Source of the DNA: an uncultured Bacteroidales bacterium
GTDB taxonomy: Bacteria > Bacteroidota > Bacteroidia > Bacteroidales > CAIWKO01
Assembly: GCA_903913285.1 (NCBI GenBank)
Contig: CAIWKO010000067.1
Span: 204-64,203, forward strand
Direction: 5' to 3'
DNA length: 64,000 nt
The position numbers were made by a program, and so were the translations under genes. Shown here piece by piece: positions 18,695 to 52,462 of this stretch (positions within the stretch are counted from its first letter, which is position 1; each line of letters starts with the position of its first letter). Below the pieces are notes generated by a model. It was given only the letters and a program-made list of their open reading frames with translations. It did not search any database and had not been told where the DNA came from.

Positions 18695-19008
18695 AAAAAG
18701 TATAAGGGAAGTCTAAAAAACGATAAGGGAAGTCCAAAAAACGATAAGGGAAGTCCAAAAAACGATAAGGGAAGTCCAAAAAACGATAAGGGAAGTCTAA
18801 AAAACGATAAGGGAAGTCCAAAAAACGATAAGGGAAGTCCAAAAAACGATAAGGGAAATCAAAAAAACGATATTGGAAGTCCAAAAAACGATATTGGAAG
18901 TCCAAAAAACGATAAAGGATGTTCAAAAAATGATAAAGGTTGCTCAAAAAACGATATAGGTTATCCAAAAAACGATAATCACCGTTCTCAAAACGGAAAG
19001 GGATGTTT
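18695..19008. repeat. 21-bp tandem repeat array A (about 14-15 units, consensus AAAAAACGATAAGGGAAGTCC)
   Basis: Exact 21-nt phasing from 18715 onward. Seven near-identical central units, with progressively degenerate units toward 19008. An A6 tract recurs every 21 bp. Confidence 0.92.
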
Positions 19009-19102
19009 AAAAGAAACTCAAATCAACTCAAAATCAATAATTAATAGATTTCGGGCCTTATCTTATTATATGAGAACGTGGTTTTGATTTGACATATCAG
19101 AG

Positions 19103-21517
19103 CTAAAAAATAATCCTGTATTGCGGTATTATCATCCTGCCCAACTGGTAGGTGAAATAGCTTTCGCCTGTTTTGCGGTTAAAGGTTTGGTTGTACACGT
19201 TTTTCTGGTTGAACAAATTCGTAACCTCAACCGACCATTCGATGGTGATGTGTTTCCCGTTCATTTTGTAGGCCAGTTTCAGGTCGGTGCGCATATAGTC
19301 GGGAAATTTTTTCGAGAACGCCAGATCGTCGTAATAAATATCTTTTTGTGCCGCCAGCGACATGGCTTCGTCGATGGGGGTGTAGCGTTGTCCGCCGTTG
19401 AAAGTGGTTTTCAGGTTCACCGTAAAGGTTTTCTTGCGTTTATCGGGTTTCTTTCTATGGAACCTCAGGTTAAATTCCTTGCCTGCCAACAGGTTTATAT
19501 TATATCCTCCGCTGAAAGCCGTGTGGCGTTCCACCCCGTCGCTGCCTTTATATTTTGAAGCGTAGAGCGAAGCAGTTCCCAAATAATAAAAGCCTTTCGA
19601 CAGAAAACGTTCAACCGTAAGTTCCACACCATAGTTCTTTCCCGTGCCTTTGTTGATAAGATAGTCGGGAGCTTTAACCTCGAAATTGGCGCCTTCGTTG
19701 AGCAGCGAGTAGCTATCGGTATCTTTTTTATCGATGGGGATATTATAAAGATACTGGAAATAGGTTTCGAACTTCAGGCGGGTGTTTTCGCTGATGGTCC
19801 AGTCGTAGGCAAACACCACGTGCAGGCTGCGTGTAAAATCGAGCTGGTTGTTGCTTAGCGTGTACGAACCGTCGGCATTTTTCACCTGATTGAAAAACAC
19901 CGTAACGGGTATCATTTGGCTGTGCATGCCAAAGCCAAGGCTGAAAGTATGCAGGGCAAACGGGCTCCATTTCAGCCCGACGCGCGGCTCCACCGACCAT
20001 GAATTGTTATAATCGTAGTATTGCCCGTGCAAACCCACGTTCAGCACCAGAGGCTCGGTAATTCTGTATTGCCATTCAGCGTAAGGCTGATAAAGCGTTG
20101 AATAGCCGCGATAATCGTTCTTGCGCAAAAAAGCAACTCCCGGCGTGCTATAAATAGTGTCCAACACATCATAGTAGAACAGCGTGGCTGTGAGGCCGGC
20201 TTTCAGGTTGTGATGCGCATTAAATTTATGATTATAATAGAACGAACCGAACATGCGGCATTCCAAATCGTTCGAACGCTCGTAGGGAAAGGTGTTCAAA
20301 GTAACAGGTGTTACCGAATCTTTGTACGTATAAAAGTTATGAAAGGTAGAAGCCAGCGTGAGTTTGATATAGCTCGATTTGTTGATGAGATACAGATCGG
20401 ACAGGGCCACCATTGCCTGATTCGAGTAGTTTGTCAGGTCCCAGCCTTCGGTGCCGTAGAAATCGATCTTTTGTTTCGTCGTATCTTTTTTGCTGTCCAA
20501 AAAAGCGATATGGCTCATGCCGCCAAACCCGAACAGCGAGATGCTCCCTATTTTGGTGTTCGGAAAATTCAGTTTGAAAAATATATCCTGATATTTGGGC
20601 ACTGCCTGCCCTGTGCCCATTTGTATGCCGAGTTTCGAAAACACATCCAGAGTCGAATAGCGGTAGTCTATCAGGTAGGAGTATCCCTTTTTCTTGCTGA
20701 TGGGTCCTTCGGCGCCTGCTTCAATGCCGTTGAAAGCCACCTGGGCCAGAAACTCGTGATGCATATTGTTGCCGCTTATCGATTTCAGGTCGAAAACCCC
20801 TGCCAGTGCGTTGCCGTATTCGGCTGGAAAGGCGCCCGTGAGGAAATCGGAATTCAGCAAAAGATTGTTTCTCAAAATGCTTATCGGGCCACCCGTGGTT
20901 CCCATGGCAGCAAAATGGTTGGGGTTGGGTATATCCACATCGTCCAGCCGCCACAACAAACCCGAAGGTGTGTTGCCGCGAATGATCACGTCGTTTCGCG
21001 AATCTTCGGTGCCGTTCACTCCCGCAAAATTGGCAGCCATGCGGGCCACGTCGCTGCGGGCGCCTGCATACATATTGGTTTCTTCCACCGTAAACTCGCG
21101 GGCGCTCACCGTGGCCATGTAGTTGATGGGAGCGGTTTTATCGGTCTGCGCACTTATCACCACTTCCTTGCCGCTAAACACTTTCTCCTCCAACTCGATA
21201 TTGAGCACGGGTTCTTTGCCCGTGTTCAACTCCAGATTCGACAAGATCATATCATTATAGCCGACGAAACTCACCTTGATGGTAACCCTGCCGATGGGCA
21301 CCGAAGGTATAGAGAAATTCCCGTTCACATCGCTGGCCGCACCCATGAGCGGGTTGCTGCCCACCACGATAATATTGGCTCCGGGCAAGGGATATTTAGT
21401 GCTTTTATCCACCACATTGCCGCGGATAACCTGTATATGTTGCGAAAAAACAGGTGCAACGCTCCAAACCGCCATAACCACCAAAAGAAAGAAAAGCCTT
21501 TTCGCAAATAAAATCAT
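19103..21517 (-). CDS. TonB-dependent receptor with N-terminal carboxypeptidase-regulatory-like domain
   Basis: Signal peptide; IRGNVVDKSTKYPLPGANIIVVG...NGNFSI (CarbopepD_reg-like); plug region (DVIIRGN...GLLWRLDDV); long beta-barrel ending ...IPQYRIIF. Confidence 0.85.
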   Translation of the reverse strand: MILFAKRLFFLLVVMAVWSVAPVFSQHIQVIRGNVVDKSTKYPLPGANIIVVGSNPLMGAASDVNGNFSIPSVPIGRVTIKVSFVGYNDMILSNLELNTGKEPVLNIELEEKVFSGKEVVISAQTDKTAPINYMATVSAREFTVEETNMYAGARSDVARMAANFAGVNGTEDSRNDVIIRGNTPSGLLWRLDDVDIPNPNHFAAMGTTGGPISILRNNLLLNSDFLTGAFPAEYGNALAGVFDLKSISGNNMHHEFLAQVAFNGIEAGAEGPISKKKGYSYLIDYRYSTLDVFSKLGIQMGTGQAVPKYQDIFFKLNFPNTKIGSISLFGFGGMSHIAFLDSKKDTTKQKIDFYGTEGWDLTNYSNQAMVALSDLYLINKSSYIKLTLASTFHNFYTYKDSVTPVTLNTFPYERSNDLECRMFGSFYYNHKFNAHHNLKAGLTATLFYYDVLDTIYSTPGVAFLRKNDYRGYSTLYQPYAEWQYRITEPLVLNVGLHGQYYDYNNSWSVEPRVGLKWSPFALHTFSLGFGMHSQMIPVTVFFNQVKNADGSYTLSNNQLDFTRSLHVVFAYDWTISENTRLKFETYFQYLYNIPIDKKDTDSYSLLNEGANFEVKAPDYLINKGTGKNYGVELTVERFLSKGFYYLGTASLYASKYKGSDGVERHTAFSGGYNINLLAGKEFNLRFHRKKPDKRKKTFTVNLKTTFNGGQRYTPIDEAMSLAAQKDIYYDDLAFSKKFPDYMRTDLKLAYKMNGKHITIEWSVEVTNLFNQKNVYNQTFNRKTGESYFTYQLGRMIIPQYRIIF

Positions 21518-21579
21518 GCTGTAAAATTACGAAATAATGCAGAACCAAAACTTGTGACTCAAGGAAAGATAGAAAGATT

Positions 21580-21670
21580 GAATTCAGAAGTCAGAAGTAA
21601 GAATTCAGAAAGGTGATTGGTGATTAGCGATTTGATTGAGCCACGAGCCATTAGCCACGAGCTATGGATG
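21580..21670. repeat. heptamer-phased tract (13 units, unit identity drifts)
   Basis: gaattca gaagtca gaagtaa gaattca gaaaggt gattggt gattagc gatttga ttgagcc acgagcc attagcc acgagct atggatg. One continuous 7-bp register. Confidence 0.65.
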
Positions 21671-21702
21671 GCAATTTGAAAGAATTGGGCGAGTTATGGA
21701 GA

Positions 21703-22296
21703 TTACCAAATATTATTCAATAATGTACTATTAATTACTTCAGTGATGTGCATGAATTTAGTAAACATGTCGTCCAATTCATCACTCGAATAAACCTTCT
21801 CGACCATATTCTTTAAACTTATTCTAAAGATATTATCTTCTGTTGATACATTCAGAATTAGCAATCTATTGTTCAGCAGTATATTTTGAATCTCTGCATC
21901 ACTAAAAATAATGTTTATTAGCTTATTATTATTGCTGTATGCCGAAAATGTTTTATCAAAGAGTTTATTGCCTGAGGCAATTTTATTTGTTTTAAATATT
22001 TTATCAAAGAACTCCCTTTCCCATATTGACAATTCTGTTTTTCTAGAAGAAGACTTTTCATACAAACAATTTAACTTATAGGGTTTACCAACCTCTTTCT
22101 CGTACGATTCCGTTTGTATGAAAAATTGAAAAAACTTATAAATATTATTATTATCACTGGCTTCTACATGCAAATGTTGTGAAGTCCCTCCATCTACAAT
22201 ATCAGAATTTTTTTTGACTGTTAGATTTAAATTATGCCGTCCTGAAAATTCTTTCCAGATATCAAGCAATTCGTTATACGATATGATATAACTCAT
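21703..22296 (-). CDS. hypothetical protein (AT-rich orphan)
   Basis: 197-aa ORF, visibly more AT-rich than its neighbours. No signal peptide or recognisable motif. Confidence 0.5.
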   Translation of the reverse strand: MSYIISYNELLDIWKEFSGRHNLNLTVKKNSDIVDGGTSQHLHVEASDNNNIYKFFQFFIQTESYEKEVGKPYKLNCLYEKSSSRKTELSIWEREFFDKIFKTNKIASGNKLFDKTFSAYSNNNKLINIIFSDAEIQNILLNNRLLILNVSTEDNIFRISLKNMVEKVYSSDELDDMFTKFMHITEVINSTLLNNIW

Positions 22297-22408
22297 TTTT
22301 CTCTTTTCATTTTTAATTATTCATTTCCATTCTCCCCCCAAAATTACAAAATAATCAAAACGAAACCATAAAATAAAAAAGGTCGTTTGCAAAACGCACC
22401 CCATTATT

Positions 22409-22471
22409 TACCAAATACCAGCTACCAAATACCAAATACCAAATACCAAATACCAAATACCTTTTACCTAA
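22409..22471. repeat. heptamer tandem repeat (9 units, TACCAAA)
   Basis: taccaaa taccagc taccaaa x5 taccttt tacctaa. Abuts and overlaps the TAG stop (22468-22470) of the radical SAM gene. Confidence 0.85.
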
Positions 22472-23808
22472 ATAACGTCTGTCCCTTTCTTAATCAGCCA
22501 CAGCCTTCCCACACTTTCGTAGAACTTTTCAATCGGCAGGGTAGTTTTCAGCACGCTGTTAAAAAAATTGTATTTCATCAGGTCGTGGTCGATGATATCG
22601 TGTTCCACTTCCTTATAAAAAACCGTGCCGGGCATGGGCGTCAGTATGGTGTAGCCTGCATACACCACGCGGTGGGCCGAGGCATAGTCCGACATGGCTT
22701 CAAAGTCGTCTTCCGTATAATCGTTCGGTATCACGTAGTTGCCGCGCAGCATTATGCCGTTGCGGTCGAAAATGTTGATGGCTTCCTCTATCAGCGATGC
22801 CGATGAATCCTTGTGATATTTTTTCAGTTCTTCGTCTCGAAACGACTCGAAGCCGCATATCACCACTTTAAGTCCTGCTTTGGCCATTTTCTCAATCAGC
22901 CACGGGTGTTTCACAGTAGTGTCGAAGCGGATGTCCATCACGAACTCTTTTTCGATGCCTTCTTCCAATATGCGGTCAACCAGCCGGCTGATGAAATCAA
23001 CGTCCACTATGGTATTGGCATCGGCAAAACGAACAATTTTATAATCGTCCAGTTGTTTCAACTCTTCGATGATGCTTTCCAACCTGCGCTGATAAAAATG
23101 CTTGTCGAACTGCGGCCAAATAGAGCAGAACGAACATTCGTAGGGGCATCCCAGCGAAGTGAACAGATAGGTGGCAGGTATGGGTCGGCCGCCAACAATG
23201 TAAGTCGATATCCAGCGTTTCAGCAAACTGCGGTCGGGCATGATGAAATTTTCGCGGGCCGCGTTCCAGGGTTTCACAGGCGCCTGGTTAGGGCGAAGGC
23301 CTTCCGCGGTGTTGAGGTATAAACCGCCAATATGGTCGAAACTTTTGTGTTGCGAATGAGCCAGCGCCACTTCGCGAAACATTCCTGCCGATTGCCCGGG
23401 GCACACCACATCAACTTCGGGCAGATTAAAATCCTGCAGCGACAGCACCGTGTGCAATCCTCCCGCAACGGTCAGTATTTCGGGATTAAATTTCTTTGCC
23501 TCACGAAATATCTCGCAGCCGAAGTAAAACTCCGAAGCAATAAACGTAACGCCAACAATATCGGGTTTAAATTCGGTCAGGTAGCGGCCAATAAGTTCTT
23601 TCAATGGCGGAGCATCGGGATGCAGGTCGTATTCGCCTTTCAGGTCGATGAGTTGCACATCGAAATCTTTCACGGCGGCGGCAATGGTTATAAGTCCGAG
23701 CGGAGGCCCGATAAGTTTTTTATGAATAAAATGTTTTGCTTCGGGCGGAGCATATTCCAGTATGCTGTTGACGGGCGAACGCGGCGGATTTACAAGCAGG
23801 ATTTTCAT
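22468..23808 (-). CDS. B12-binding-domain radical SAM protein (class B)
   Basis: N-terminal cobalamin-binding-like Rossmann region (MKILLVNPP...GLITIAAAV...DIVGVT). CX3CX2C cluster motif LGCPYECSFCSIW. 446 aa. Confidence 0.85.
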   Translation of the reverse strand: MKILLVNPPRSPVNSILEYAPPEAKHFIHKKLIGPPLGLITIAAAVKDFDVQLIDLKGEYDLHPDAPPLKELIGRYLTEFKPDIVGVTFIASEFYFGCEIFREAKKFNPEILTVAGGLHTVLSLQDFNLPEVDVVCPGQSAGMFREVALAHSQHKSFDHIGGLYLNTAEGLRPNQAPVKPWNAARENFIMPDRSLLKRWISTYIVGGRPIPATYLFTSLGCPYECSFCSIWPQFDKHFYQRRLESIIEELKQLDDYKIVRFADANTIVDVDFISRLVDRILEEGIEKEFVMDIRFDTTVKHPWLIEKMAKAGLKVVICGFESFRDEELKKYHKDSSASLIEEAINIFDRNGIMLRGNYVIPNDYTEDDFEAMSDYASAHRVVYAGYTILTPMPGTVFYKEVEHDIIDHDLMKYNFFNSVLKTTLPIEKFYESVGRLWLIKKGTDVI

Positions 23809-24734: not shown

Positions 24735-25133
24735 GTGTTCCATTACTTTTTGCATGTGTTCCATTACTTTTCGCATGTGTTCCATTACTTTTCGCATGTG
24801 TTCCATCACTTTTCGAATGTGTTCCATTACTTTTTGAATGTGTTCCATTACTTTTCGCATGTGTTAACTCACTTAACGCATCTCGTCACTCACTTTTTGA
24901 ATGTGTGAACTCACTTTTCGCATCTCGTCACTCACTTTTCGCATGTGTTAACTCACTTTTCGCATCTCGTCACTCACTTTTTGAATGTGTGAACACACTT
25001 TTCGAATGTGTGAACTCACTTTTCGCATGTGTTAACTCACTTTTTGAATGTGTGAATTCACTTTTAACATCTCGTCACTCACTTTTTGAATGTGTTAACT
25101 CACTTTCTGCATGTGTTAACTAACTTTTCGCAT
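24735..25133. repeat. 21-bp tandem repeat array B (19 units, two subfamilies)
   Basis: Six units GTGTTCCATTACTTTTCGCAT (24735-24860), then 13 units alternating GTGT(T/G)AACTCACTTTTCGCAT and CTCGTCACTCACTTTTTGAAT. Strict 21-nt register throughout. Confidence 0.92.
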
Positions 25134-25176
25134 GTGTTTACATTTCCCGCCTTATTAAAACATCCCAACCTCTATT

Positions 25177-25222
25177 AACCATTTAACCATTTAACTCATT
25201 TAACCAATTAACCGATCAACCC
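25177..25222. repeat. 8-9-bp tandem repeat (about 5 units, AACCATTT)
   Basis: aaccattt aaccattt aactcattt aaccaatt aaccgatc aacc. Confidence 0.7.
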
Positions 25223-25225
25223 CCA

Positions 25226-25330
25226 TTATATCATTGTATCATTGTATCATTGTATCATTGTATCATTGTATCATTATATCATTATATCATTATCTCATTA
25301 TCTCATTGTATCATTATCTCATTGCATCAT
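25226..25330. repeat. 8-bp tandem repeat (about 13 units, ATCATTGT)
   Basis: atcattgt x5, atcattat x3, ctcattat x2, then mixed units. Ends 28 nt upstream of the -7 box of the glycosyltransferase gene. Confidence 0.88.
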
Positions 25331-25374: not shown

Positions 25375-26646
25375 ATGTCAAAAATATTGCTTGCTTCGGT
25401 TCCCTTGTCGGGACATGTAAACCCGGCTGTTTCGCTGGTGAAGATGCTCATCGCGCGCGGGCACGAAGTATGCTGGTATTGCGGGGCCTATTACCGCGAA
25501 ACCATTGAAGCCACCGGGGCAAAGTTTTTTCCGTATAAACGGGCAAAAGATTTTCACGACAGCAGCATCGCCACCGAATTTCCCAATTTGCCCTACACGA
25601 GTTTGTTCCGTCATGCCACCTATTACATCAAGCATGTTTTTTACGACAATATGCACGGGCAGTATCACGATCTGTGCGAAATACTGAAAGATTTTAAAGC
25701 CGACATCCTGCTCACCGACGAATGGTTCACGGGGGCCATACCTCTGGCCGAAAACAAGGTGTTGCCCTGGGTGTGCTACTGCAATTCGCCTTTGTTTTAC
25801 TATACCAACGAAATTCCTTTCCCGGGCTCGGGCATATTCCCCGATGCATCACTTTTGGGCATTGGCCGCAACTACTTAGTGAATAAGATGGTTACCAAAA
25901 TATTTTTCGCAGGGGTTCAGGCCTATATCAACAAGCTCCGCAACGACCTCGGACTGGCGCCTATGAAGCGCTTTTTTTTGATAAACAATATTTTTATTTC
26001 GCGCTGTTTCGTTAAATTCAATACACCGGCATTCGAGTTTAACTGGAATAACCTTCCCGAAACTATACGTTTTGTGGGTCCGGTATTGCCGGAACATTCA
26101 ACCCCCGTCAGTTTTGAATGGACACCGTTGCTGCATTCGGGCAAACCCGTGATATTTATCACGCAGGGCAGCGTCAATATCAGCGATCACAGCAAACTTA
26201 TCGTTCCGGCTTTAAAAGCTTTGCAAAGCTCCGGTGCAATGGTGGTGGTGGCCACAGGCAGCGGTTCAACCGATTCTTTGCAAACGCAGTTCGGCTCAGA
26301 AACCGTATTTATTGACCCCTACATCCCTTACGAATTTATTATGCCTCACGCCTCGCTGATAATAACCAACGGCGGTTTCGGGGGTGTTATCACGGCTTTG
26401 GCGCACGGTGTGCCGTTGATAGTTGCCGGCGATACCGAAGATAAACCCGAAATAGCGGCCCGCATCAAATATTGTAAAGTAGGTATCAATCTGGGCACCG
26501 GAAATCCAAGTCCCCGTCGCATCAAAAAAGCCGTTGAAAAGATATTGCACGATCCGGTTTATAAAAACAATGCCGTCGGCATCAGCAAGGATTTTCAGCA
26601 GCACAATGCTGCATTGGAAACCTGTTTGCTGATCGAGGAAATATAG
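25375..26646 (+). CDS. MGT/UDP-glycosyltransferase family (GT1) glycosyltransferase
   Basis: Start at Met48 of the tracked ORF (MSKILLASVPLSGHVNPAVSL, typical GT1 N-terminus); the upstream 47 codons are the 8-bp repeat array. C-terminal UDPGT signature ...ITNGGFGGVITALAHGVPLIVAGDTEDKPE. Confidence 0.85.
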   Translation: MSKILLASVPLSGHVNPAVSLVKMLIARGHEVCWYCGAYYRETIEATGAKFFPYKRAKDFHDSSIATEFPNLPYTSLFRHATYYIKHVFYDNMHGQYHDLCEILKDFKADILLTDEWFTGAIPLAENKVLPWVCYCNSPLFYYTNEIPFPGSGIFPDASLLGIGRNYLVNKMVTKIFFAGVQAYINKLRNDLGLAPMKRFFLINNIFISRCFVKFNTPAFEFNWNNLPETIRFVGPVLPEHSTPVSFEWTPLLHSGKPVIFITQGSVNISDHSKLIVPALKALQSSGAMVVVATGSGSTDSLQTQFGSETVFIDPYIPYEFIMPHASLIITNGGFGGVITALAHGVPLIVAGDTEDKPEIAARIKYCKVGINLGTGNPSPRRIKKAVEKILHDPVYKNNAVGISKDFQQHNAALETCLLIEEI

Positions 26647-34881: not shown

Positions 34882-34956
34882 CCGCATACCAGCAGATAGG
34901 GAATAGTAATTTATAGAATTCCTGAACTTTGCCTCTTGTTTTCTGGAAGTAATACG

Positions 34957-35400
34957 CCCCTTTGCGGAAAAAAAAAACACCGTTGCGGTGTCATTATGCC
35001 CAATTTCGGAAACAAAAACACCAATTTCGGAACCATTGTACACGATTTCAGGGACAAAATACACCATTGCGGAGCTAGAAAACATCATTGCGGATCCATT
35101 GTGCACGATTGCGGAAACAAAAAACATGATTGCGGAAGCATTGTGCCCCATTGCGCAGCCTTCCGACACGAGTGCGTAACCAAAATACACGAGTGCGCGA
35201 CACTAGTGCCCCATTTCGGACCAAAAAACTCCATTGCGGAACCTTCGCACCCCACTGCGCAACCCTCGAACCCGACTGCGGAAACCTCATGCACCATTGC
35301 GGAGCATCAAACTTCATTGCGCACCCTTCGCGCCCCATTGCGGAAGCCTCAAACTTCATTGCGGAACCAAAATCCCCGACTGCGGAAGCCCGACGCTGGA
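34957..35400. repeat. 21-bp tandem repeat array E (about 21 units, core CATTGCGGAA)
   Basis: The T(G/T)CGG core recurs at 34963, 34984, 35005, 35026 and onward. 3' units include ccattgcggaaccttcgcacc, ccactgcgcaaccctcgaacc, cgactgcggaaacctcatgca. Units are more divergent than in arrays A and B. Confidence 0.88.
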
Positions 35401-35419
35401 GCCGCATTTTTCATAACAT

Positions 35420-35524
35420 AAAACTCAAAACTTAAAACTCTGAACAAAATCTTTCGGCTTCAGGCTTCGATCTTCGTGCCTTTCCCTGTTCCCTTTAGCC
35501 TACAGCCTAAAAGCCCAAAGCCTA
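35420..35524. repeat. heptamer-phased tract (15 units, unit identity drifts)
   Basis: aaaactc aaaactt aaaactc tgaacaa aatcttt cggcttc aggcttc gatcttc gtgcctt tccctgt tcccttt agcctac agcctaa aagccca aagccta. Confidence 0.75.
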
Positions 35525-43283: not shown

Positions 43284-43619
43284 TCAACCTTTTCCTTGAC
43301 CGGCTTTAACTTTACTCTTGTCGGTTTTTGTAGGAGTTGTTTTTGTTCCGGTTGGTTTTGTTGTTTTTGTACCTTTTACCGGTTTTTTAGCTGCTGCTGC
43401 AATTGAATCATCTTTTACTTTTTTTACTGCTGCAATTGAATCATCTTTTACTTTTTTTACTGCTGCAATTGAATCATCTTTTGCTTTTTGAACTTTAGCA
43501 ATTGAATCTTGTTTTGCTTTTTCTTTAGCAGCTTTTTCTTGAGCACTTGGTCCGCAAGCTATCATAGCAGCCATGCCGACAATTACTAACAAACTAAATA
43601 ATTTTTTCATTTTTTTCAA
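43284..43619 (-). CDS. Lys/Ala-rich repeat lipoprotein (paralog 1 of 2)
   Basis: Lipobox MIACG. Three 11-aa repeats KDDSIAAVKKV encoded by three 33-bp DNA repeats (43395-43493). T/K-rich tail. Confidence 0.7.
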   Translation of the reverse strand: MKKMKKLFSLLVIVGMAAMIACGPSAQEKAAKEKAKQDSIAKVQKAKDDSIAAVKKVKDDSIAAVKKVKDDSIAAAAKKPVKGTKTTKPTGTKTTPTKTDKSKVKAGQGKG

Positions 43620-43806: not shown

Positions 43807-44142
43807 CTATTTTTTTGGCTTAGGAGTAGTTTTTGTAGCTGTAGTAGTAGTTTTTGTTGTTTTTGTTCCAGTAGTAGTTTTTGTTGTTTTTGCACCTTTT
43901 ACTGGTTTTTTTGCTGCTGCTGCTGCAATTGAATCTTCTTTTGCTTTTTGAACTTTAGCAATTGAATCTTGTTTTGCTTGTTGAACTTTAGCAATTGAAT
44001 CCTGAGTAGCTTGTTCTTTTTGAACTTTAGCTATAGAATCTTGTTTTGCTTTTTCTTTTGCTGCTTTTTCTTGAGCGCTAGGTCCGCAAGCTACGATTGC
44101 TACCATACCAGCAATTACGAGTAATGATAATAATTTTTTCAT
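43807..44142 (-). CDS. Lys/Ala-rich repeat lipoprotein (paralog 2 of 2)
   Basis: Same N-terminus as 43284-43619 (LLVIAGM.A.VACGPSAQEKAAKEKAKQDSIAKVQK). QDSIAKVQ repeats. TTKT-rich tail. Confidence 0.7.
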   Translation of the reverse strand: MKKLLSLLVIAGMVAIVACGPSAQEKAAKEKAKQDSIAKVQKEQATQDSIAKVQQAKQDSIAKVQKAKEDSIAAAAAKKPVKGAKTTKTTTGTKTTKTTTTATKTTPKPKK

Positions 44143-44310: not shown

Positions 44311-44979
44311 ATGAAAAAATTATCTTTTTTGCTTGCTTCGATTGTTTTATTCGGTGGCATGATTACCATTTCCAGTTGTTCGAAAACCGATACTACCTCT
44401 CCGGTGGTTACGTTGACAAATGATGATGCAACTCATAACAGAGTGGCTCAATTTAGTATTACTACTTATGTAGACCCAGGTTCAACCGTGACCGACGATA
44501 TTGATAAAAGTTTAGTTGCTACTGTTGCTGGTACTGTTAATATGCTTTCAGCCGGTGATTATCCTTTGGTTTATACTGCTACTGATAAAGCAGGTAATAA
44601 AGGTACTGCAACCAGAACTGTTACAGTTGATGGAGGTATGTATTTAGCAGGATCGTTTAATGCCGAGGATTTTGATGCCAGTAATGTTTCACAAGGTACA
44701 TATACTGAAACTTGTGCTTCTTCAACGATTACTACTAATAAAATTAATTTTACAAAGTTTGCCTTCTATACGAATGGTTCCGTTTATGGTACCTGTTCAG
44801 GAACTACTATCACGATTCCTCAACAAACTGTTACTTGCGGAAGTGTGGGTAATGTAGCTGACAGAACTTTCACAGGTTCGGGTACATATTCTTCAGCTAA
44901 TCGTAATTTTACTATTAATTATTCTGAAACTACGAATAGTACTACGGTAACCGGACATGATACTTATTCAGCGTTCTAA
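44311..44979 (+). CDS. lipoprotein with DUF5011-like Ig domain (paralog 1 of 5)
   Basis: Lipobox ISSCS. PVVTLTNDD...YVDPGSTVTDDIDKS...AGDYPLVYTATDKAGNKGTATRTVTV is typical of the DUF5011 Ig-like module. Has a second shared C-terminal domain. Confidence 0.7.
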   Translation: MKKLSFLLASIVLFGGMITISSCSKTDTTSPVVTLTNDDATHNRVAQFSITTYVDPGSTVTDDIDKSLVATVAGTVNMLSAGDYPLVYTATDKAGNKGTATRTVTVDGGMYLAGSFNAEDFDASNVSQGTYTETCASSTITTNKINFTKFAFYTNGSVYGTCSGTTITIPQQTVTCGSVGNVADRTFTGSGTYSSANRNFTINYSETTNSTTVTGHDTYSAF

Positions 44980-44998
44980 AAATATTTCTACTAAATAA

Positions 44999-45036
44999 TA
45001 AAAAAGAGGCTGCACGATTCGGGCAGCCTCTTTTTA
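44999..45036 (+). terminator. intrinsic terminator
   Basis: Stem gaggctgc/gcagcctc (45006-45030) followed by T5. Confidence 0.8.
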
Positions 45037-45210
45037 TTATTCTTGAGTCGTATTGCAAAAAAAATACAGCGGTCAGAAACTTCTGAGATATTAAATCAGG
45101 TTTTATAGCTTGTTTTTATTTTCTGTTTCGGAATTTTTCTTAAATTTGTACAAATTATAGATTCATTTTATTTATCACTTAAAAAAGTATTCACCAAAAT
45201 TTCAACCGAT

Positions 45211-45876
45211 ATGAAAAAAATTACTTTAATTTTAGTATCATTTTTAATGATTGCCTCTGTTAGTACATTTACTTCGTGCAAGAAAAACCCAACAACCCTT
45301 CCCACCATTAATTTAATGGGTAGTTCTTCTATTTATTTATCGCTCAATGCCGGTTTTAATGAACCTGGAGTAACTGCCACTAACAGCGATGGCGCTTATC
45401 TAAATGTGAAAATTACTTCTATCCCCACTTTCAACAAAGATTTGGTGGGTACTTACGTTTTTACCTATTCGGCTTTCGATATATATGGTAACACCAACTC
45501 GGTTACCCGAACAGTTATCGTGCAAAACGATGCCATCAGGTTTGAGGGTACATACAGTGCTACCGACGACGGAATCATTGGTTCGTGGCATAACACCTGG
45601 ACGGAAACCATTGTGGCATCAACAACCATCAACAACCGCGTTAATTTTAGCTCATTTGGCAACTATGAGCATTGTCAGCCTTTTGCCGATTTCAACACTG
45701 ACCATAGTAAAGTCAACTTGTTTGAGCAAACTTTTAATTGCGGCACACCCACTGCAGACCACACTTTTAGTGGAATAGGCACGGTTTCTTCAGATAAAAC
45801 AATAACAGTACCTTATACAAAAGTAACAGGAACTACCACTAACACTGGCATTGCGGTTTTTACAAAGCAAATTTAA
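45211..45876 (+). CDS. lipoprotein with DUF5011-like Ig domain (paralog 2 of 5)
   Basis: Lipobox FTSCK. PTINLMGSSSIYLSLNAGFNEPGVTATNSDG...GTYVFTYSAFDIYGNTNSVTRTVIV. An exact -7 box taaatttg lies at 45141-45148. Confidence 0.7.
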   Translation: MKKITLILVSFLMIASVSTFTSCKKNPTTLPTINLMGSSSIYLSLNAGFNEPGVTATNSDGAYLNVKITSIPTFNKDLVGTYVFTYSAFDIYGNTNSVTRTVIVQNDAIRFEGTYSATDDGIIGSWHNTWTETIVASTTINNRVNFSSFGNYEHCQPFADFNTDHSKVNLFEQTFNCGTPTADHTFSGIGTVSSDKTITVPYTKVTGTTTNTGIAVFTKQI

Positions 45877-45896
45877 AACGATAGTAAAGGTATATA

Positions 45897-45935
45897 TAAA
45901 AGTCCCGATTGAACTTTCAATCGGGACTTTTTTTG
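45897..45935 (+). terminator. intrinsic terminator
   Basis: 10-bp stem agtcccgatt/aatcgggact (45901-45928) followed by T7. Confidence 0.85.
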
Positions 45936-46024
45936 TGCATTGACTTATGCAATAAAAACCACCGATTACAGTTACCTTAATAATAATTCGTATTTTTGAA
46001 TCGTATTTCATTCAAACCGTTTCT

Positions 46025-46663
46025 ATGAAAAAAATTGTTTATCTTTCTTTCGCTCTCACCCTGATATTTATTGTTGCCTGCACCAAACACGATACCACTG
46101 CACCAGTCATTACACTCAAAGGTAGTAATCCTGATGTGGTAGTTTTTGGAAGAAGCGCAACCTATACGGATCCAGGTGCCTCGGTAATTGACGATTTTGA
46201 AGGCTCAATGAACTATGCCATTACTGCAGGCAGCGTAGATATGTTTTCGGCCGGGAAATATAGTCTCACATACACTGCCACCGATCTCTCGGACAATACT
46301 TCAACAGAAATTCGTTACATTTATGTTGATGCAGCATCATATTTAAGTGGAAAATTTTCAATTCAAAACTATATAATTAACGTTTACGATACAACCTATG
46401 CCGACACAATTTCGGCTACCGATACCAACGGCATTACGTTTAAACATTTTGCCGCATATCAAAAAGCCATTGTAACAGGAACTATAGCAGGTACCACCAT
46501 AACCATCCCACCGCAAACCGTTTTGTGCGGCTCGCCGGCTCAAAACCGTACATTTTCGGGAAACGGCACTTTTACCAGCGACAGTATTTTTACGGTTAAC
46601 TACACCGTTCAGGATACAACAACGGTTATTTCGGGATACGGCAATTTCGTCAGAAACCATTAA
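46025..46663 (+). CDS. lipoprotein with DUF5011-like Ig domain (paralog 3 of 5)
   Basis: Lipobox IVACT. PVITLKGSNPDVVVFGRSATYTDPGASVIDDFEGS...GKYSLTYTATDLSDNTSTEIRYIYV. An exact -7 box tatttttg lies at 45991-45998. Confidence 0.7.
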   Translation: MKKIVYLSFALTLIFIVACTKHDTTAPVITLKGSNPDVVVFGRSATYTDPGASVIDDFEGSMNYAITAGSVDMFSAGKYSLTYTATDLSDNTSTEIRYIYVDAASYLSGKFSIQNYIINVYDTTYADTISATDTNGITFKHFAAYQKAIVTGTIAGTTITIPPQTVLCGSPAQNRTFSGNGTFTSDSIFTVNYTVQDTTTVISGYGNFVRNH

Positions 46664-46701
46664 TAAGAGAATATATAATAGTGAATAGTAATGATTTACG
46701 A

Positions 46702-46785
46702 GATATCAATTACCAACTACAAGATATCAATTACCATATACCTTTCACCATTCACCTTTACCCTTTTATCAAACACCAAATACTG
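46702..46785. repeat. heptamer-phased tract (12 units, mostly NNTACCA/NTCACCA)
   Basis: gatatca attacca actacaa gatatca attacca tatacct ttcacca ttcacct ttaccct tttatca aacacca aatactg. Ends 5 nt before ATG 46791. Confidence 0.7.
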
Positions 46786-46790
46786 ATAAA

Positions 46791-47435
46791 ATGAACATAA
46801 AATCATCTTGCATTGTCTTTCTATTAGCAGCCGGATTGGTTTCGTGTAAGAAAAAAGATACCACTCCTCCTTTGGTAACGCTCAATGGCGATGCCATAGT
46901 ATACGTAAGTCTCAACTCGGCTTTTATCGACCCGGGCGCAACGGCCTACGATGATAAAGACGGCGTTATTCCTGTTTCTGTCGATAACACCGTTGATGTG
47001 AACTTTGCCGGAACCTACTATGTTAACTATAATGCAAACGATGCAGCCGGCAACGGGGGCGATGCAGTTCGCACGGTAATCGTCAGCAACGATGCCGATC
47101 ACTATCTCGGAACCTGGTTTGGCACCACCATTCAGGGCACCGACACCTCACATTTTTATCCTGTTTTATCTACTTCTACCCAATTAAACAACCGCATTTG
47201 GTTGGTGTGTTATGCCACTGCTACCAATGCCACCGTTTATGCCGACCTGCGCTACGACACTATCATGCTTCCACACCAATTGATTGAAGCCGGCAGTCCT
47301 TTTCAAACACATGCATACACCGGCAGCGGATTTATTAAAACCATTAGCGACACTCTGGAATTTGAGATCAACTATACCGATTCCGTTTCGGGAATCATCA
47401 ACACTGGCAAAACCATTTATAAAAAAATAAATTAA
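46791..47435 (+). CDS. lipoprotein with DUF5011-like Ig domain (paralog 4 of 5)
   Basis: Lipobox LVSCK. PLVTLNGDAIVYVSLNSAFIDPGATAYDDKDG...GTYYVNYNANDAAGNGGDAVRTVIV. Confidence 0.7.
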   Translation: MNIKSSCIVFLLAAGLVSCKKKDTTPPLVTLNGDAIVYVSLNSAFIDPGATAYDDKDGVIPVSVDNTVDVNFAGTYYVNYNANDAAGNGGDAVRTVIVSNDADHYLGTWFGTTIQGTDTSHFYPVLSTSTQLNNRIWLVCYATATNATVYADLRYDTIMLPHQLIEAGSPFQTHAYTGSGFIKTISDTLEFEINYTDSVSGIINTGKTIYKKIN

Positions 47436-47489
47436 CGGATTGAACGTTTATTCGTAAATTTACACATCAATTAAAACTCCCAATCAATT

Positions 47490-47807
47490 ATGAAAGATCT
47501 TATTTTTATAATTCTGCTAACTCCGTTCATATTTTTCTCCTGCAAAAAAAACACTAAAGATACCACTCCGCCTGTCATCACTTTAATTGGTAGTGCTGCA
47601 GTAGATGTCAACACCAGCACCTCTTATACAGATGTAGGTGCAACCGCAAAAGACGATGTTGACGGTGATAATACGAGCAGTATTGTTGTCAATAATTCTG
47701 TTAATACTAATGTCAATAACACCTACTATGTAACCTACAATGTTAAAGACAAAGCAGGCAATGCTGCCACCGAAGTAAAGCGTAAGGTAGTAGTTTTTAA
47801 TTTCTAA
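47490..47807 (+). CDS. short lipoprotein consisting only of the DUF5011-like Ig domain (paralog 5 of 5)
   Basis: Lipobox FFSCK. PVITLIGSAAVDVNTSTSYTDVGATAKDDVDGD...YYVTYNVKDKAGNAATEVKRKVVV. 105 aa; lacks the C-terminal domain of the other four. Confidence 0.65.
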   Translation: MKDLIFIILLTPFIFFSCKKNTKDTTPPVITLIGSAAVDVNTSTSYTDVGATAKDDVDGDNTSSIVVNNSVNTNVNNTYYVTYNVKDKAGNAATEVKRKVVVFNF

Positions 47808-50727: not shown

Positions 50728-51597
50728 TTATTGAACAATAACCTTATCAACAACCCGGTCGAGTTTGCTGTCCATCACAATAGAATAAGTACCTTTGGCA
50801 AAACCGGAAGTATTGATTTTGATTTTATTATTATTGAAGTTGGTATAATTTTGTTCGAATACTTTTTGTCCCTGCATATTATACATGATGACATTATAAT
50901 CAGTAGCAACAGGAGCATTGATATCGATAAATATTTGTTCGGTAGTAGGATTTGGGTAAATGCTGATTCCTTCAAGAATATGATTTACATCAATTCCCAC
51001 GCCGCTATGAGTAAGAAGTGAAACGTCGTCAAATAAAAAGTTTGTAATATCCCAGCCGTGCGTTCTTGATTTAAAATGCAAGACGTGAGTTGCATCGTCG
51101 GCATAGGTATCAATCGGAATAGAGATCTTAGTGTAACTCTTATATGTCGTAGAATCGGGTCCGGCATTGGTTGAAAACCATACCGCATTATTATCAATAA
51201 AAATCGTCATCGAATCTACATCCAGTTTGCTTGCAGTTGGCATTTTATACCAAAATGATAAAAAGGCAGGTTTACTATTACGAATAAAAACAGACTGAGT
51301 AAGATTTCCATCGGAAAGTTTCCCAGACCATGAATTTACTGATGCTCCAAACCACACATACCATGCGCCGCTGTGCGGACATTGAATTCCATTATTAGGC
51401 CCGCAATAATGGGCAGAACCGACAAGAGTATCGCATAAAGGAGAACCCAAATATGTTGTTGTCCCCGCCCAGGCTGTTCCGGTTGGTCCGGTTTCAAAAC
51501 TCGAATCGACCACGGAATTTGCTACGTTTTGTGAGTAGGCTACGTTTATTGTTAAGATTAATGCAGTAAAGATAAAAATCGGATAAATTTTTTTCAT
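50728..51597 (-). CDS. T9SS-secreted protein (type A C-terminal sorting domain)
   Basis: Signal peptide (INVAYS/QN). C-terminal ISIYPNPTTEQIFIDIN...GTYSIVMDS...KVIVQ. Confidence 0.75.
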   Translation of the reverse strand: MKKIYPIFIFTALILTINVAYSQNVANSVVDSSFETGPTGTAWAGTTTYLGSPLCDTLVGSAHYCGPNNGIQCPHSGAWYVWFGASVNSWSGKLSDGNLTQSVFIRNSKPAFLSFWYKMPTASKLDVDSMTIFIDNNAVWFSTNAGPDSTTYKSYTKISIPIDTYADDATHVLHFKSRTHGWDITNFLFDDVSLLTHSGVGIDVNHILEGISIYPNPTTEQIFIDINAPVATDYNVIMYNMQGQKVFEQNYTNFNNNKIKINTSGFAKGTYSIVMDSKLDRVVDKVIVQ

Positions 51598-51631: not shown

Positions 51632-51740
51632 AAATAAAAACGTTATAAAAAATATTGCATTAATAAATGTTGATAAAGTAAACTTTGTTATAATTTAAAA
51701 AGAAAATCAATATCGTTCGATAATCATTAAATATTATTAT

Positions 51741-51779
51741 AAAAAATCTCCTTCGGTCATCCGGAGGAGATTTTTTTTT
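51741..51779. terminator. orphan strong hairpin with A/T flanks (terminator-like; no annotated gene ends here)
   Basis: atctcct-t-cgg / ccg-g-aggagat stem (11 bp including one T-G pair), tcat loop, flanked by A6 and T9. Lies between divergent genes. Confidence 0.6.
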
Positions 51780-51904
51780 GCAGGAATTCAATATTATAAT
51801 AGCCCTCCGAACTTTCGGAAGTACTATGTCGTACCCGAGCAACTGCTAATCATTTGAATTGATAATATTTCATACCCTTTCAAACCACGGTAGATTGTTA
51901 GCCA

Positions 51905-52355
51905 AATCGTAAAGAACCTTGGGAACCATTTCCCGACTCATGCGGACGGTTTCCCGACTCGTGCGAACCATTTCCCAGGTCAAGCGCAGGCATCCCCGAT
52001 CATGCGAATCCTTTCCCGACTATTGCGAACCCTTTCCTTGGTCGTGCGAATGGTTTCCTAACTCGTGCGAACCATTTCCGTGATCAAGCGGAGGCATCCC
52101 CGGTCATGCGAACCATTTCTTTTGTCGTGCGAACGGTATCGTTCCATGAGCGAACGATATCGTCAAAAGAGAGAACCTTTTCCTTGCTCGTGCGAACCAA
52201 TTCCCAACTCGTGCGAACCCTTTCCTTGGTCGTGCGAACCAATTTCCAAATCGTGCGAACCCTTTCCTTGGTCGCGCGAACCCTTTCCTGACTCGTGCGA
52301 ACCCTTTCCTTGGCAGTGCGAACCCTTTCCTCGCTCATGCGGAAACTTTTCCTTA
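51905..52355. repeat. 21-bp tandem repeat array G (about 21 units, consensus TCGTGCGAACCCTTTCCTTGG)
   Basis: The TGCGA core recurs at 52003, 52024, 52045, 52066, (52087), 52107, 52128, 52191, 52212, 52233, 52254, 52275, 52296, 52317, 52338. One 1-nt slip; degenerate units at 52140-52180. Confidence 0.9.
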
Positions 52356-52413
52356 TGATACCATTCTATACAAAACCAAAAGATATCTCCGTTTCTGAGA
52401 CTTATGGCAAATC

Positions 52414-52462
52414 AAATCCCCAATCCCCAATCGCACCTTTTACCTATTACCTTTTACCTAAC
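52414..52462. repeat. heptamer tract (7 units: CAATCCC-type then ACCTTTT-type)
   Basis: aaatccc caatccc caatcgc acctttt acctatt acctttt acctaac. The register is kept across the change of unit. Confidence 0.75.

Follow-up and report, generated by a model that had tools for sequence, protein, structure and literature searches.

Tandem arrays of constant 21-bp unit size and variable sequence in the large intergenic spacers of an uncultured Bacteroidales lineage

Tandem arrays of the 64-kb window

The window, that is, the whole 64-kb stretch of DNA analysed here, was searched for tandem arrays with TRF, and non-coding arrays were counted at a TRF score of at least 40. The search revealed four 21-bp arrays (A, B, E and G) with mutually unrelated unit sequences, accompanied by shorter tracts, which are listed here with their neighbouring genes as assigned by Pfam; repeats carry no strand unless one is given.

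5031..5106: 7/28-bp array of ACTTGTT-type heptamers, filling the convergent 3'-3' DUF1003/Maf spacer
17386-17409: 11-bp repeat, breaking the 7-nt rule
17442-18509, minus strand: Por_Secre_tail gene, with array A on its 5' side
18695..19009: array A, 15 x 21 bp, consensus AAAAACGATAAGGGAAGTCCA
19015..19037: 11-bp repeat, AACTCAAAATC x 2.2, adjoining array A; not a multiple of 7
19103-21517, minus strand: CarboxypepD_reg gene, with array A on its 3' side
21580..21662: heptamer tracts GAAGTCA x 4.4 and GAGCCAC x 3.6, in a co-directional spacer
22293-22326 and 22409-22461: heptamer tracts TCATTTT x 4.9 and TACCAAA x 7.6, at the spacer of the genes 21703-22296 and 22468-23808 (both minus strand)
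24745..25143: array B, 19 x 21 bp, consensus ACTTTTCGCATGTGTTAACTC
25175-25213: 8-bp array, TTAACCAT x about 5, adjoining B; not a multiple of 7
25224-25330: 8-bp array, CATTGTAT x 13.4, adjoining B; not a multiple of 7
25375-26646, plus strand: glycosyltransferase gene, with array B on its 5' side
34123-34881, plus strand: nitroreductase gene
34955..35390: array E, 21 units of 21 bp (two are 20 bp), no two alike
35411..35440: AAAACTC-like heptamer/14-mer tract, directly downstream of array E
35599-39603, plus strand: gene for a 1334-aa DUF7948/SprB/CHU_C protein, with array E on its 5' side
46697..46736: nascent 21-bp duplication, TACAAGATATCAATTACCAAC x 1.9, in the spacer of two Bact_surface_Ig-like paralogues
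50728-51597, minus strand: Por_Secre_tail gene
51923..52354: array G, 20 units of 21 bp (two are 20 bp), consensus GAACC(C/A)TTTCCnnnnTCGTGC, core GTGCGAACC, in a divergent spacer
52415..52459: two heptamer tracts, AATCCCC x 2.6 and ACCTTTT x 3.6, between array G and the mgsA promoter
52513-53787, plus strand: mgsA/rarA

The spacers of A, B, E and G (593, 756, 717 and 915 bp) are the largest four of the window and the only ones above 500 bp; each is built from a 21-bp array of 14-21 units, and 1561 of their 2981 bases belong to these arrays. TRF delimits them at 18695-18978 (13.5 copies, 89% matches), 24745-25138 (18.8 copies), approximately 34955-35390, and 51923-52354, with a match level of 65-79% in B, E and G; counted in register, the arrays hold 15, 19, 21 and 20 units. 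Autocorrelation across these spacers has its maxima at lags of 21, 42 and 63, and TRF also recovers higher-order blocks of 42, 63, 83 and 104 bp. Array A has perfect or near-perfect units in its centre, degenerate units at its right and an A5-6 tract once per 21 bp. Array B combines three to four unit types in 42/63-bp blocks, with a T4-5 tract each 21 bp; E has a core (C)ATTGCGGA(A) with varying linkers and 63- and 83-bp blocks, and G has 42- and 104-bp blocks.

The period is a strict multiple of 7 in 11 of the 17 non-coding arrays of the window (binomial P = 2.7e-6), or in 13/17 if the periods 83 and 104 are counted as one base short of 84 and 105. A preliminary description had placed 21-bp arrays and 7-bp tracts in the large spacers and seen in them a common process acting on free sequence, rather than one dispersed repeat family. 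TRF and autocorrelation bear out the arrays and their non-random periods, the denial of a single family is supported, and a fixed unit size with variable sequence is an apt description.

Turnover among close relatives

The arrays are gained, lost and replaced among close relatives. Array E is missing from the 82% and 80% relatives, the former having 66 bp at its position, and array G is missing from the 78-79% relatives; an 81% relative has an unrelated 21-bp array at G's place. Locus L089 has an unrelated 21-bp array 5' of mgsA. In three syntenic relatives (L211, L213 and L215) the mgsA spacers measure 106-123 bp, and the 21 kb covered in each is free of 7- and 21-bp arrays; likewise, L466/L467 have no tandem arrays in 20.7 kb. 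In the 78-82% relatives that lack the arrays, the genes on either side and the core promoter of mgsA are conserved. Thus, the arrays look like recent species-specific gains and not like conserved regulatory sites.

Each array grew in situ as single units and blocks of 2-5 units were duplicated in tandem, and the arrays are located where extra DNA is tolerated, namely behind a gene end or 5' of a core promoter that is left intact. Array G, for instance, lies upstream of, and not inside, the conserved mgsA core promoter and promoter-proximal sequence.

Coding potential, RNA and mobile elements

The arrays are not coding, are not structured RNA and do not lie in an element with inverted terminal repeats. 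ORFs of 84-161 codons traverse them, and the arrays are lineage-specific insertions, features that would fit protein-coding heptad repeats or the cargo of a mobile element, such as the MITE minisatellite BrickBuilt of Porphyromonas gingivalis, also of the Bacteroidales (PMC4596501). The window arrays share with BrickBuilt an intergenic minisatellite form and a unit of about two helical turns; unlike it, they have neither terminal inverted repeats around any array nor dispersed copies with common flanks. We rejected a MITE origin on these missing repeats and the unique flanks, and the coding alternative because the ORFs are periodic read-through that shifts register at the 20-bp units, with variation within units that is not 3-periodic. 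Both origins are hardly credible.

A second alternative places the function in RNA: leaders or small RNAs transcribed from the arrays would serve as sponges for proteins or, being C-rich and unstructured, as sites for Rho loading. Read in the direction of the downstream gene, each of the four arrays has more C than G (GC skew -0.20 to -0.24) and lacks structure, three of the four come after a co-directional upstream gene, and transcription of the 52-nt repeats of Bacillus has been reported (PMC8625621). The want of an Rfam match, and of a folding signal on any strand, speaks against RNA-level elements. Against this alternative, too, the unselected sample described below has no strand bias (9 arrays C>G vs 13 G>C), the TGCGRA core of B falls on the antisense strand, and G occupies a divergent spacer upstream of the mgsA promoter. 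We accordingly regard RNA-level function as very unlikely.

Period bias beyond the window

Unselected Bacteroidota DNA has the same period bias: in a sample of 80 such loci (1.4 Mb), 32 of 61 non-coding arrays have periods that are multiples of 7 (P = 3e-12). The bias is not peculiar to this window, and it is found in other phyla too. An excess of heptamers, with slippage as the proposed cause, is attributed to Mrazek et al. 2007 (PNAS; Mrazek, Guo & Shah) in the passages of PMC4679880 and PMC4692102 that quote it, and the intergenic 7-nt units of the window resemble the long heptanucleotide SSRs, over-represented relative to other unit lengths, as there quoted. Bacteroidetes spacers with several different heptamers were recorded by MacGregor (2015). 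The cyanobacterial STRR repeats and the TAACTGA repeats are, in contrast, single heptamers recurring genome-wide, whereas each window tract has its own heptamer and the long arrays are complex 21-nt units free of heptamer substructure.

This last point bears on the earlier claim of one underlying period, 21 = 3 x 7, which is an arithmetical reading rather than a demonstrated one. If 7 nt were the sole quantum of slippage, all arrays would derive from heptamers and the 21-mers would be three diverged heptamers. Periods of 7, 14, 21, 28, 42, 49 and 84 do dominate Bacteroidota non-coding arrays, heptamer tracts sit beside arrays E and G, 21-mers are visibly three heptamers in loci L018, L069 and L077, and 143 21-mers of mixed origin show elevated identity at lag 7 (z = 4.6). 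However, the four window 21-mers have no lag-7 substructure, and 61 non-coding 21-mers from all phyla give no heptamer signal (z = 1.4). Moreover, long arrays show no preference for periods of 14 or 28 over 21, 8- and 11-bp arrays adjoin A and B, and true 20- and 22-bp arrays are abundant. We consider a pure 7-nt origin improbable.

In loci picked via one 21-bp array, the other nearby arrays number 39 at period 21, four at 20 and four at 22, with unrelated units; outside this lineage, periods 20-23 are all used. Within the lineage, all six long arrays (A, B, E, G and two in L089) have a period of exactly 21 or 42, and long arrays per kb are approximately 30 times as frequent as in the unselected sample. 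Both observations count against a purely mutational origin.

Cores and linkers

TGCGRA occurs once per unit in E, G and the opposite strand of B and is absent from A, as the preliminary description stated. That description also offered it as a shared core, with the caution that chance might suffice, and chance does: 15% of shuffled-unit trials match the sharing (P = 0.15) when at least 3/4 units must have a common hexamer of equal degeneracy on either strand. The best position-matrix comparisons of units gave P = 0.04-0.08 before correction for six tests, none being significant once corrected. The share of array B in TGCGRA is a coincidence.

A G/E-type motif family of the form TGCG(G)AACC may nevertheless be real and common to E, G and the unrelated locus L457. 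There, between flanks unrelated to the window, the array G core GTGCGAACC is found again at strict 21-bp spacing, kept in 18/20 units across three different linker classes, and array E carries the similar TTGCGGAACC. When core was compared with linker and block amplification was allowed for, the P values were 0.74 for A, 0.29 for B, 0.23 for E and 0.0065 for G, so that evidence for selection on the cores is weak. The significant column heterogeneity of G, together with the core retained in L457, looks like constraint on a putative recognition site.

These findings speak for regarding the arrays as phased binding sites, in which a lineage-specific architectural or regulatory protein would bind a short core and polymerise at a 21-bp, two-turn step, the core being kept while the linker drifts. 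A nucleoid-protein hypothesis for such repeats was put forward by Subirana & Messeguer, and short species-characteristic motifs are known in 21-nt repeats (TCGCGG in B. weihaiensis; PMC8161180). The core-plus-linker units and the exactly constant unit size in the lineage also favour it. Conversely, the four arrays have four different cores that pairwise tests do not unite, A, B and E show no significant excess of conservation in core over linker, and TGCGRA is nearly missing from other spacers. Further, the arrays are missing in the 78-82% relatives despite conserved surroundings, and no DNA-binding protein gene was found beside any of the four. We view phased binding as conceivable, if rather unlikely.

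Gene context

Three of the four arrays had been described as lying 5' of genes for T9SS-secreted or surface proteins, with the fourth 5' of an ACP cluster. The latter holds, since the glycosyltransferase gene downstream of B heads an ABC-transporter/BtrH/ACP/sulfotransferase/AMP-ligase cluster. The former stands for the window, where Pfam confirms the neighbours and 3/5 T9SS-cargo genes adjoin arrays (P = 0.003, post hoc), but it is not general: the 21 genes facing 7n arrays in the unselected sample are housekeeping genes, and array density there is highest in convergent 3'-3' spacers and lowest in divergent promoter spacers.

The T9SS link would be expected of contingency loci, in which copy number switches or tunes the adjacent surface proteins; the 7-bp repeats 5' of the H. 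influenzae adhesin genes hmw1A/hmw2A are such SSR loci (PMC2651432, PMC12721329) and share with the window arrays a position 5' of surface-protein genes. The near-perfect central run of array A could slip. However, the window units are mostly degenerate, B, E and G being too much so for ready slippage; eight assemblies, each from another sample, agree exactly in the spacer holding array G, with no copy-number variation; G is upstream of the mgsA promoter and not within it; and the G-type array of L457 lies 3' of nrdJ. The suggestion of phase-variation elements thus fares poorly, and we hold it to be most improbable.

Relationship to known repeats and proposed origin

The window arrays match an already described class, defined by constant unit size and variable sequence. 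This class, with a constant 20-21 nt, is reportedly also the subject of Subirana & Messeguer in J Bacteriol 2020, 202:e00229-20. The later account (PMC8161180; Subirana & Messeguer, Int J Mol Sci 2021) describes non-coding, species-specific repeats of constant 20-21 nt and variable sequence, several families to a genome, and notes the two helix turns; hosts named include Bacillus, Paenibacillus, Cyanobacteria and Actinobacteria. The likeness extends to the 21-nt size of two turns, several same-size unrelated arrays per genome, at least four repeats, non-coding and species-specific character, and a short conserved plus a variable stretch per unit. The differences are the host, an uncultured Bacteroidales lineage known here from 64 kb, and the four different cores of the window as against a species-characteristic motif.

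Plasmid and phage iterons (17-22 bp at about 22-bp spacing), the F sopC repeats (43 bp x 12) and the 7-bp heptads bound by omega of pSM19035 are direct tandem repeats of comparable design. Iterons and centromere-like arrays have in common with the window arrays a conserved core, one helix face and a step of about two turns; they differ in that the window arrays are chromosomal, have no Rep/Par/omega-type gene near them, comprise about 14-21 copies at four loci with four cores, and are not conserved in close relatives.

On balance, the arrays are more probably than not young, species-specific non-coding minisatellites of the described class, beside ordinary heptanucleotide SSRs; in that class the sequence is free and the unit spans some two turns of the helix (20-23 nt), the window arrays having exactly 21. 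The duplications would arise via replication slippage or unequal recombination, short tracts showing the known bias to 7-nt steps, and expansion into long arrays may be limited to units of about two turns. A possible reason is that a 21-bp step puts all units on one helix face, so that unit bends (in A and B, those of their A/T-tracts) and contacts with any protein would add in phase; helical phase or a protein ruler could then be the size filter. The window arrays most likely have no sequence-specific regulatory role, and would serve at most as a curved or inert spacer. Counting against this explanation are the heterogeneity of G with core retention in L457, the T9SS-cargo association and the C>G composition of all four arrays; a putative two-turn binding-protein array or curvature element is possible.

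Minor repeats

The 8-bp arrays beside B and the 11-bp repeats (19015-19037 and 17386-17409), which the preliminary description missed, are exceptions to the 7-nt rule. The heptamer array at 5031..5106 lies outside 18695-52462, the range given in that description.

Tandem arrays in the large spacers

Tandem Repeats Finder resolved four arrays of 21-bp units in the window together with short heptamer tracts, and the genes that had been described next to the arrays were confirmed by Pfam:

18695-18978: array A, 21-bp unit, 15 units in register, 5' of a Por_Secre_tail gene
24745-25138: array B, 21-bp unit, 19 units in register, 5' of a glycosyltransferase gene
about 34955-35390: array E, 21-bp unit, 21 units, 5' of a 1334-aa DUF7948/SprB/PKD/CHU_C gene
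51923-52354: array G, 21-bp unit, 20 units, between a Por_Secre_tail gene and mgsA/rarA
5031-5106: short heptamer tract
21580-21662: short heptamer tract
22293-22326: short heptamer tract
22409-22461: short heptamer tract
35411-35440: short heptamer tract
52415-52459: short heptamer tract

By Pfam, the glycosyltransferase gene next to array B heads an ABC-transporter/BtrH/ACP/sulfotransferase/AMP-ligase cluster. The domain annotation also confirms the genome as one from Bacteroidota. The arrays fill the four largest spacers of the window (593, 756, 717 and 915 bp), where they account for 1561 of 2981 bases, and autocorrelation peaks at lags 21, 42 and 63 in all four; 20-bp units occur occasionally among them. 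The heptamer differs in every tract and no single one recurs at many loci of the window, unlike the STRR/TAACTGA repeats. In being intergenic and over-represented, the tracts resemble the heptanucleotide LSSRs of Mrazek et al. 2007, which passages quoted in PMC4679880 and PMC4692102 cite for an excess of heptanucleotide repeats with polymerase slippage as its proposed cause. Several different heptamers within single Bacteroidetes spacers were reported by MacGregor 2015.

The window has 17 non-coding arrays with a TRF score of at least 40; strict multiples of seven (7n) make up the periods of 11 of them (binomial P = 2.7e-6), or 13 if the higher-order periods of 83 and 104 bp are counted as 84 and 105 minus one base. 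The exceptions, which the preliminary description did not mention, are 11-bp repeats adjoining A and, adjoining B, an 8-bp array of 13 copies and a TTAACCAT array.

Period bias beyond the window

Using the conserved MgsA protein, we fetched 80 Bacteroidota loci (1.41 Mb) with no selection for repeats. In this unselected sample, 7n periods are found in 32 of the 61 non-coding arrays (7 bp, 19; 14 bp, 5; 21 bp, 6; 42 bp, 1; 84 bp, 1), about 14% being expected (P = 3e-12). The excess of 7- and 21-nt periods first noticed in the window is genuine, but the window is not special in having it.

The further proposal of one underlying period, with 21 as 3 x 7, is not borne out: the four window units have no excess of identity at lag 7, and true 20- and 22-bp arrays exist widely. 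For 61 non-coding 21-mers from many phyla the lag-7 signal is z = 1.4, and heptamer substructure was rejected both for the window arrays and for non-coding 21-mers generally; a minority of 21-mers outside the window are visibly three diverged heptamers. Scans of species-representative genomes for the hexamer TGCGRA (four cores) at spacings of 20, 21 and 22 each gave at least 120 matches, numbers that are not comparable between spacings. The matches spaced at 21 bp come from many phyla and, among the matches listed, comprise 94 true 21-bp arrays and 20 7-bp arrays; neighbouring arrays at these listed loci have unrelated units, with periods of 21 (39 arrays), 20 (4), 22 (4) and 7 (25). Spacings 20 and 22 yielded 94 true 20-bp and 102 true 22-bp arrays among the matches listed, also in many phyla. 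Because there is no general lag-7 signal and true 20- and 22-bp arrays exist, the wider class has units of roughly two helical turns, the preferred size varying by lineage. A pure 7-nt slippage origin, by which the arrays would have grown from heptamers, has specific evidence against it in the missing lag-7 substructure of the window 21-mers. By B-DNA geometry, a 21-bp period would put every unit on the same helix face so that bends add up; with 7-bp units only each third unit would be in phase and bends would mostly cancel.

Some 22-bp arrays form dispersed families, a given unit recurring at several places in a genome or in related genomes, namely in a Tannerellaceae MAG (L352, L367, L414), Paludibacter (L346, L391, L419) and Prevotellaceae (L336, L366, L384); many of their units hold an internal palindrome, e.g., TGTAGCTGACCTACA. 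The 22-bp repeat TGCGGAnnTTTGAGCCAnnnnn is kept in 2-6 copies across the Bacillaceae Scopulibacillus, Cytobacillus, Virgibacillus, Oceanobacillus and Bacillus (L363, L365, L370, L393, L397, L398, L418, L420, L440, L446, L453). Unlike the species-specific arrays, it resembles a conserved array of functional sites.

Coding, mobile and RNA-level readings

All four arrays lie between Pfam-supported genes. Coding heptad repeats were rejected because the 84-161-codon ORFs inside the arrays are periodic read-through whose register shifts at the 20-bp units, and a MITE origin of the BrickBuilt type was rejected because no inverted repeats bracket any array; a mobile or coding origin thus has specific evidence against it. 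The same holds for a function at the RNA level. Read in the sense of the downstream gene, all four arrays have more C than G, but a rut-like, Rho-loading reading of this composition was rejected, since the unselected sample shows no strand bias (9 vs 13). Structured RNA was likewise rejected: there is no Rfam family anywhere in the window, and neither strand folds better than dinucleotide shuffles (z -2.1 to +3.9). A CRISPR array, in which repeats of about 24-48 nt alternate with unique spacers of similar length, was rejected on account of the whole period of 21 bp, linkers recurring in higher-order blocks, and no cas genes among the annotated genes. In the Pfam annotation (about 40 window genes), no Rep, Par or regulator gene lies near any array; without such an adjoining cognate gene, the arrays are unlike iteron or centromere-like arrays.

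The shared hexamer and the G-type core

Each unit of E and G has one TGCGRA, as does each unit of B on the opposite strand, and the hexamer had been put forward as a core shared by these three of the four arrays. When the four consensus units were shuffled, at least three of them shared some hexamer, allowing one purine/pyrimidine-degenerate position, either strand and any phase, in 15% of trials (P = 0.15, only four arrays being available). Comparison of position matrices over all rotations and both strands gave P = 0.077 for E-G and P = 0.043 for B-G, with the other pairs not significant, and no pair survives correction for six tests. Given these results, the hexamer sharing is indistinguishable from chance, as the preliminary description had itself suspected; its statement that the arrays have one unit size and differing unit sequences stands, there being four distinct consensus units. 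Just two intergenic copies of TGCGRA lie outside the arrays in the window, and its near-absence from other spacers, together with the shuffle and matrix tests, led us to reject it as a common regulator site.

A metagenome scan with a two-core pattern from array G recovered an unrelated Bacteroidota contig of 1253 bp, L457. At positions 68-500 it holds 20 units, strictly 21 bp apart, that carry the array-G core GTGCGAACC and fall into three linker classes. Eighteen of these units retain GCGAACC, across all three, very different, classes. The flanks of this array show no relation to the window; in this, and in the absence of terminal inverted repeats from the window arrays, the arrays are unlike BrickBuilt elements. 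The gene on whose 3' side the L457 array lies encodes a B12-dependent ribonucleotide reductase (nrdJ); two relatives, 77% identical in this gene, have just 43-58 bp at the site. In the protein database, many homologues of nrdJ are incomplete and lie at contig ends, which would fit assemblies broken there by repeats. Several units of array E carry TTGCGGAACC, similar to the G-type core, and TGCG(G)AACC is common to E, G and L457. Because L457 keeps the array-G core and the E units carry this similar sequence, a G/E-type motif family across the three is possible; the membership of array B by way of TGCGRA is probably a coincidence.

Mismatches concentrate in certain columns of B, E and G (P < 0.0002) in a naive dispersion test, which is inflated because blocks of units are duplicated. 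The number of distinct states per column is significant in no array, and parsimony changes per column on the unit tree are significant for G (P = 0.0065) and not for A (0.74), B (0.29) or E (0.23). The parsimony test and L457 together are real but limited evidence that the G-type core is constrained; column tests that allow for block duplication give no evidence of constraint on the cores of A or B.

A phage link was rejected, as the viral sequences that match GTGCGAACC and TTGCGGAA in phase are GC-rich elements with no relation to the arrays. Two GC-rich viral or prophage contigs (L461:2650-2900(-) and L462:11450-11700) hold 4-5 direct GTGCGAACC/GCGAACC sites and one inverted site within about 100 bp. 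This resembles an iteron or operator cluster, whose motif matches the array-G core in an unrelated context.

Gene class and position

The arrays had been tied to genes for T9SS-secreted or surface proteins. Within the window this association holds, in that T9SS cargo makes up three of the five genes whose 5' end faces a long array and five of about 59 window genes (hypergeometric P = 0.003, post hoc), but there is no enrichment in the unselected sample. There, the 21 genes with 7n arrays in the 5' spacer are housekeeping genes, e.g., those for type III glutamine synthetase, IMP dehydrogenase, dihydroorotate dehydrogenase, DAHP synthase, YceG and RadC; their listed families include no T9SS domains, and Por_Secre_tail is found in 4 of 125 control genes. 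Arrays in this sample are most concentrated between the 3' ends of convergent genes (16 in 20.7 kb) and least so in the promoter spacers of divergent genes (7 in 30.4 kb), the reverse of what promoter elements would lead one to expect.

Seventeen of the 61 non-coding arrays, from 10 of the 80 unselected loci, lie at most 450 bp from mgsA/rarA, mostly directly 3' of the stop codon, in a zone with only 9% of the non-coding bases (P = 1.7e-5 per array; about 2.5-3-fold per locus). Window 51923-52354 and L089:9551-9857, from an 81% relative, are also mgsA-adjacent arrays. This excess could be an assembly-break bias or a property of the neighbourhood.

Age and turnover

The source strain is present in eight assemblies from different samples, all with an identical 915-bp spacer of array G; as these assemblies are nearly clonal, this is weak evidence against hypervariability. 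Phase variation of surface proteins, which had been suggested, thus has specific evidence against it, weak as the test is, and the constant copy number of G is unlike that of phase-variable contingency SSRs. Those repeats lie in a promoter spacer, 5' UTR or ORF, where their copy number alters expression; array G lies upstream of conserved mgsA promoter-proximal sequence.

In three syntenic relatives (MgsA identity 78-79%) the spacer upstream of mgsA measures only 106-123 bp and array G is missing; 21 kb of each contain no non-coding arrays of 7 or 21 bp. The window keeps the promoter-proximal sequence of these relatives (TTTTTTGTA.TTTCG) downstream of array G, so the array was inserted upstream of a core promoter that is still intact. 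The 81% relative has at the place of array G a 21-bp array with an unrelated unit (CTCTATAG-type core) and elsewhere a 42-bp array, i.e., two arrays in 14.5 kb against four in the 64-kb window. At the site of array E, an 82% relative has 66 bp between a nitroreductase gene and the orthologous 1334-aa gene, with the array absent, and an 80% relative (L466:10760-11660) has an IS200-like Y1 transposase with several REP-like palindromes (GCCCCGAAGGGGC) on its flanks, and no tandem arrays in 20.7 kb. Extra DNA of differing kinds has thus entered the spacer of array E, depending on the lineage. A search of the metagenome collection for the unit of array A gave no match, and long arrays are about 30 times more frequent per kb in the window than in the unselected sample. 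A survey of related Bacteroidota, which the preliminary description had called for, thus found E and G not to be conserved; since arrays are absent or replaced in the 78-82% relatives, the sequence comparison indicates that they are recent gains confined to a narrow lineage.

A class of constant size and variable sequence

Subirana and Messeguer have described non-coding tandem repeats, "enigmatic" in their word, whose size is constant (20-21 nt or 52 nt) while the sequence varies, with several species-specific families per genome, often a short characteristic motif per repeat, and 20-21 nt corresponding to two helix turns; they proposed a protein polymerising on DNA, or small RNAs (PMC8161180). 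For their original survey, more than about 19 such arrays per genome are reported. The window arrays are like this class in unit size and copy number (21 bp and 15-21 copies; class, 20-21 (20-23) nt and at least 4 copies), in joining the same size with unrelated sequences, in lying between genes with only periodic read-through as ORFs, and in being species-specific (E and G are missing in relatives). As to the species-wide short motif of the class, the window offers TGCGRA in three arrays at P = 0.15, with four arrays only. On balance, we favour reading A, B, E and G as young minisatellites of this known class, accompanied by ordinary heptamer repeats. The arrays grow in place through unit and block duplication, sit where extra DNA is tolerated and turn over fast; a two-turn size filter might decide which duplications expand, and a regulatory role tied to their sequence would be absent.

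As the main rival, a protein specific to the lineage would read the core at a 21-bp register. In its favour are the exactly constant unit size in the lineage, the burst-like abundance of arrays and the fact that the G-type core recurs in L457; we nonetheless consider it rather unlikely. Less probable again is that the lineage recently gained a factor, most simply a DNA-binding protein, that would act as a 21-bp ruler, reading a TGCG(G)AACC-type core on one helix face and driving, or selecting for, the emergence and growth of phased-site arrays at many loci (5' of mgsA, 3' of nrdJ and 5' of the SprB-like adhesin gene). If true, it would make this lineage a tractable entry to the unexplained constant-size, variable-sequence repeats of bacteria.

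The observation itself is already published for other phyla, and little has appeared in print on why two-turn units are preferred regardless of sequence. To the minisatellite reading this lineage adds dated array births, bracketed between species about 80% identical in housekeeping proteins, and a recurring core, GTGCGAACC, whose presence at an unrelated locus offers DNA probes for pull-down or DAP-seq. The clade also allows array-rich and array-free genomes to be compared for the responsible gene (a binding protein) or loss (a repair function). For annotation, long 21-bp-repeat spacers of Bacteroidales, and the ORFs of 80-160 codons called inside them, should not be taken for genes, nor should they be taken for conserved regulatory regions.

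Other repeats and gene pairs in the window

Five tandem Bact_surface_Ig-like paralogues (44311-47807; 222, 221, 212, 214 and 105 aa), whose order is kept in the 78-81% relatives, have a nascent 21-bp duplication in one of their spacers (46697-46736). Between the start of the Por_Secre_tail gene and array G lies a 37-nt imperfect inverted repeat (51720-51797), 70% complementary with a 4-nt loop. Two neighbouring 111-aa ORFs (43284-43619(-) and 43807-44142(-)) consist mostly of 33-bp (11-aa) repeats, which are kept in the 78-79% relatives (L213:369-476; L215:2723-2837); their copy number varies among assemblies of the same strain (L081 and L083 vs the window), the only polymorphism seen besides the mgsA 3' end. 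The overlapping genes at 3676-4330, for a nucleotidyltransferase (NTP_transf_2/Polbeta) and a HepT-like RNase, form a toxin-antitoxin pair of the MNT-HepT type.
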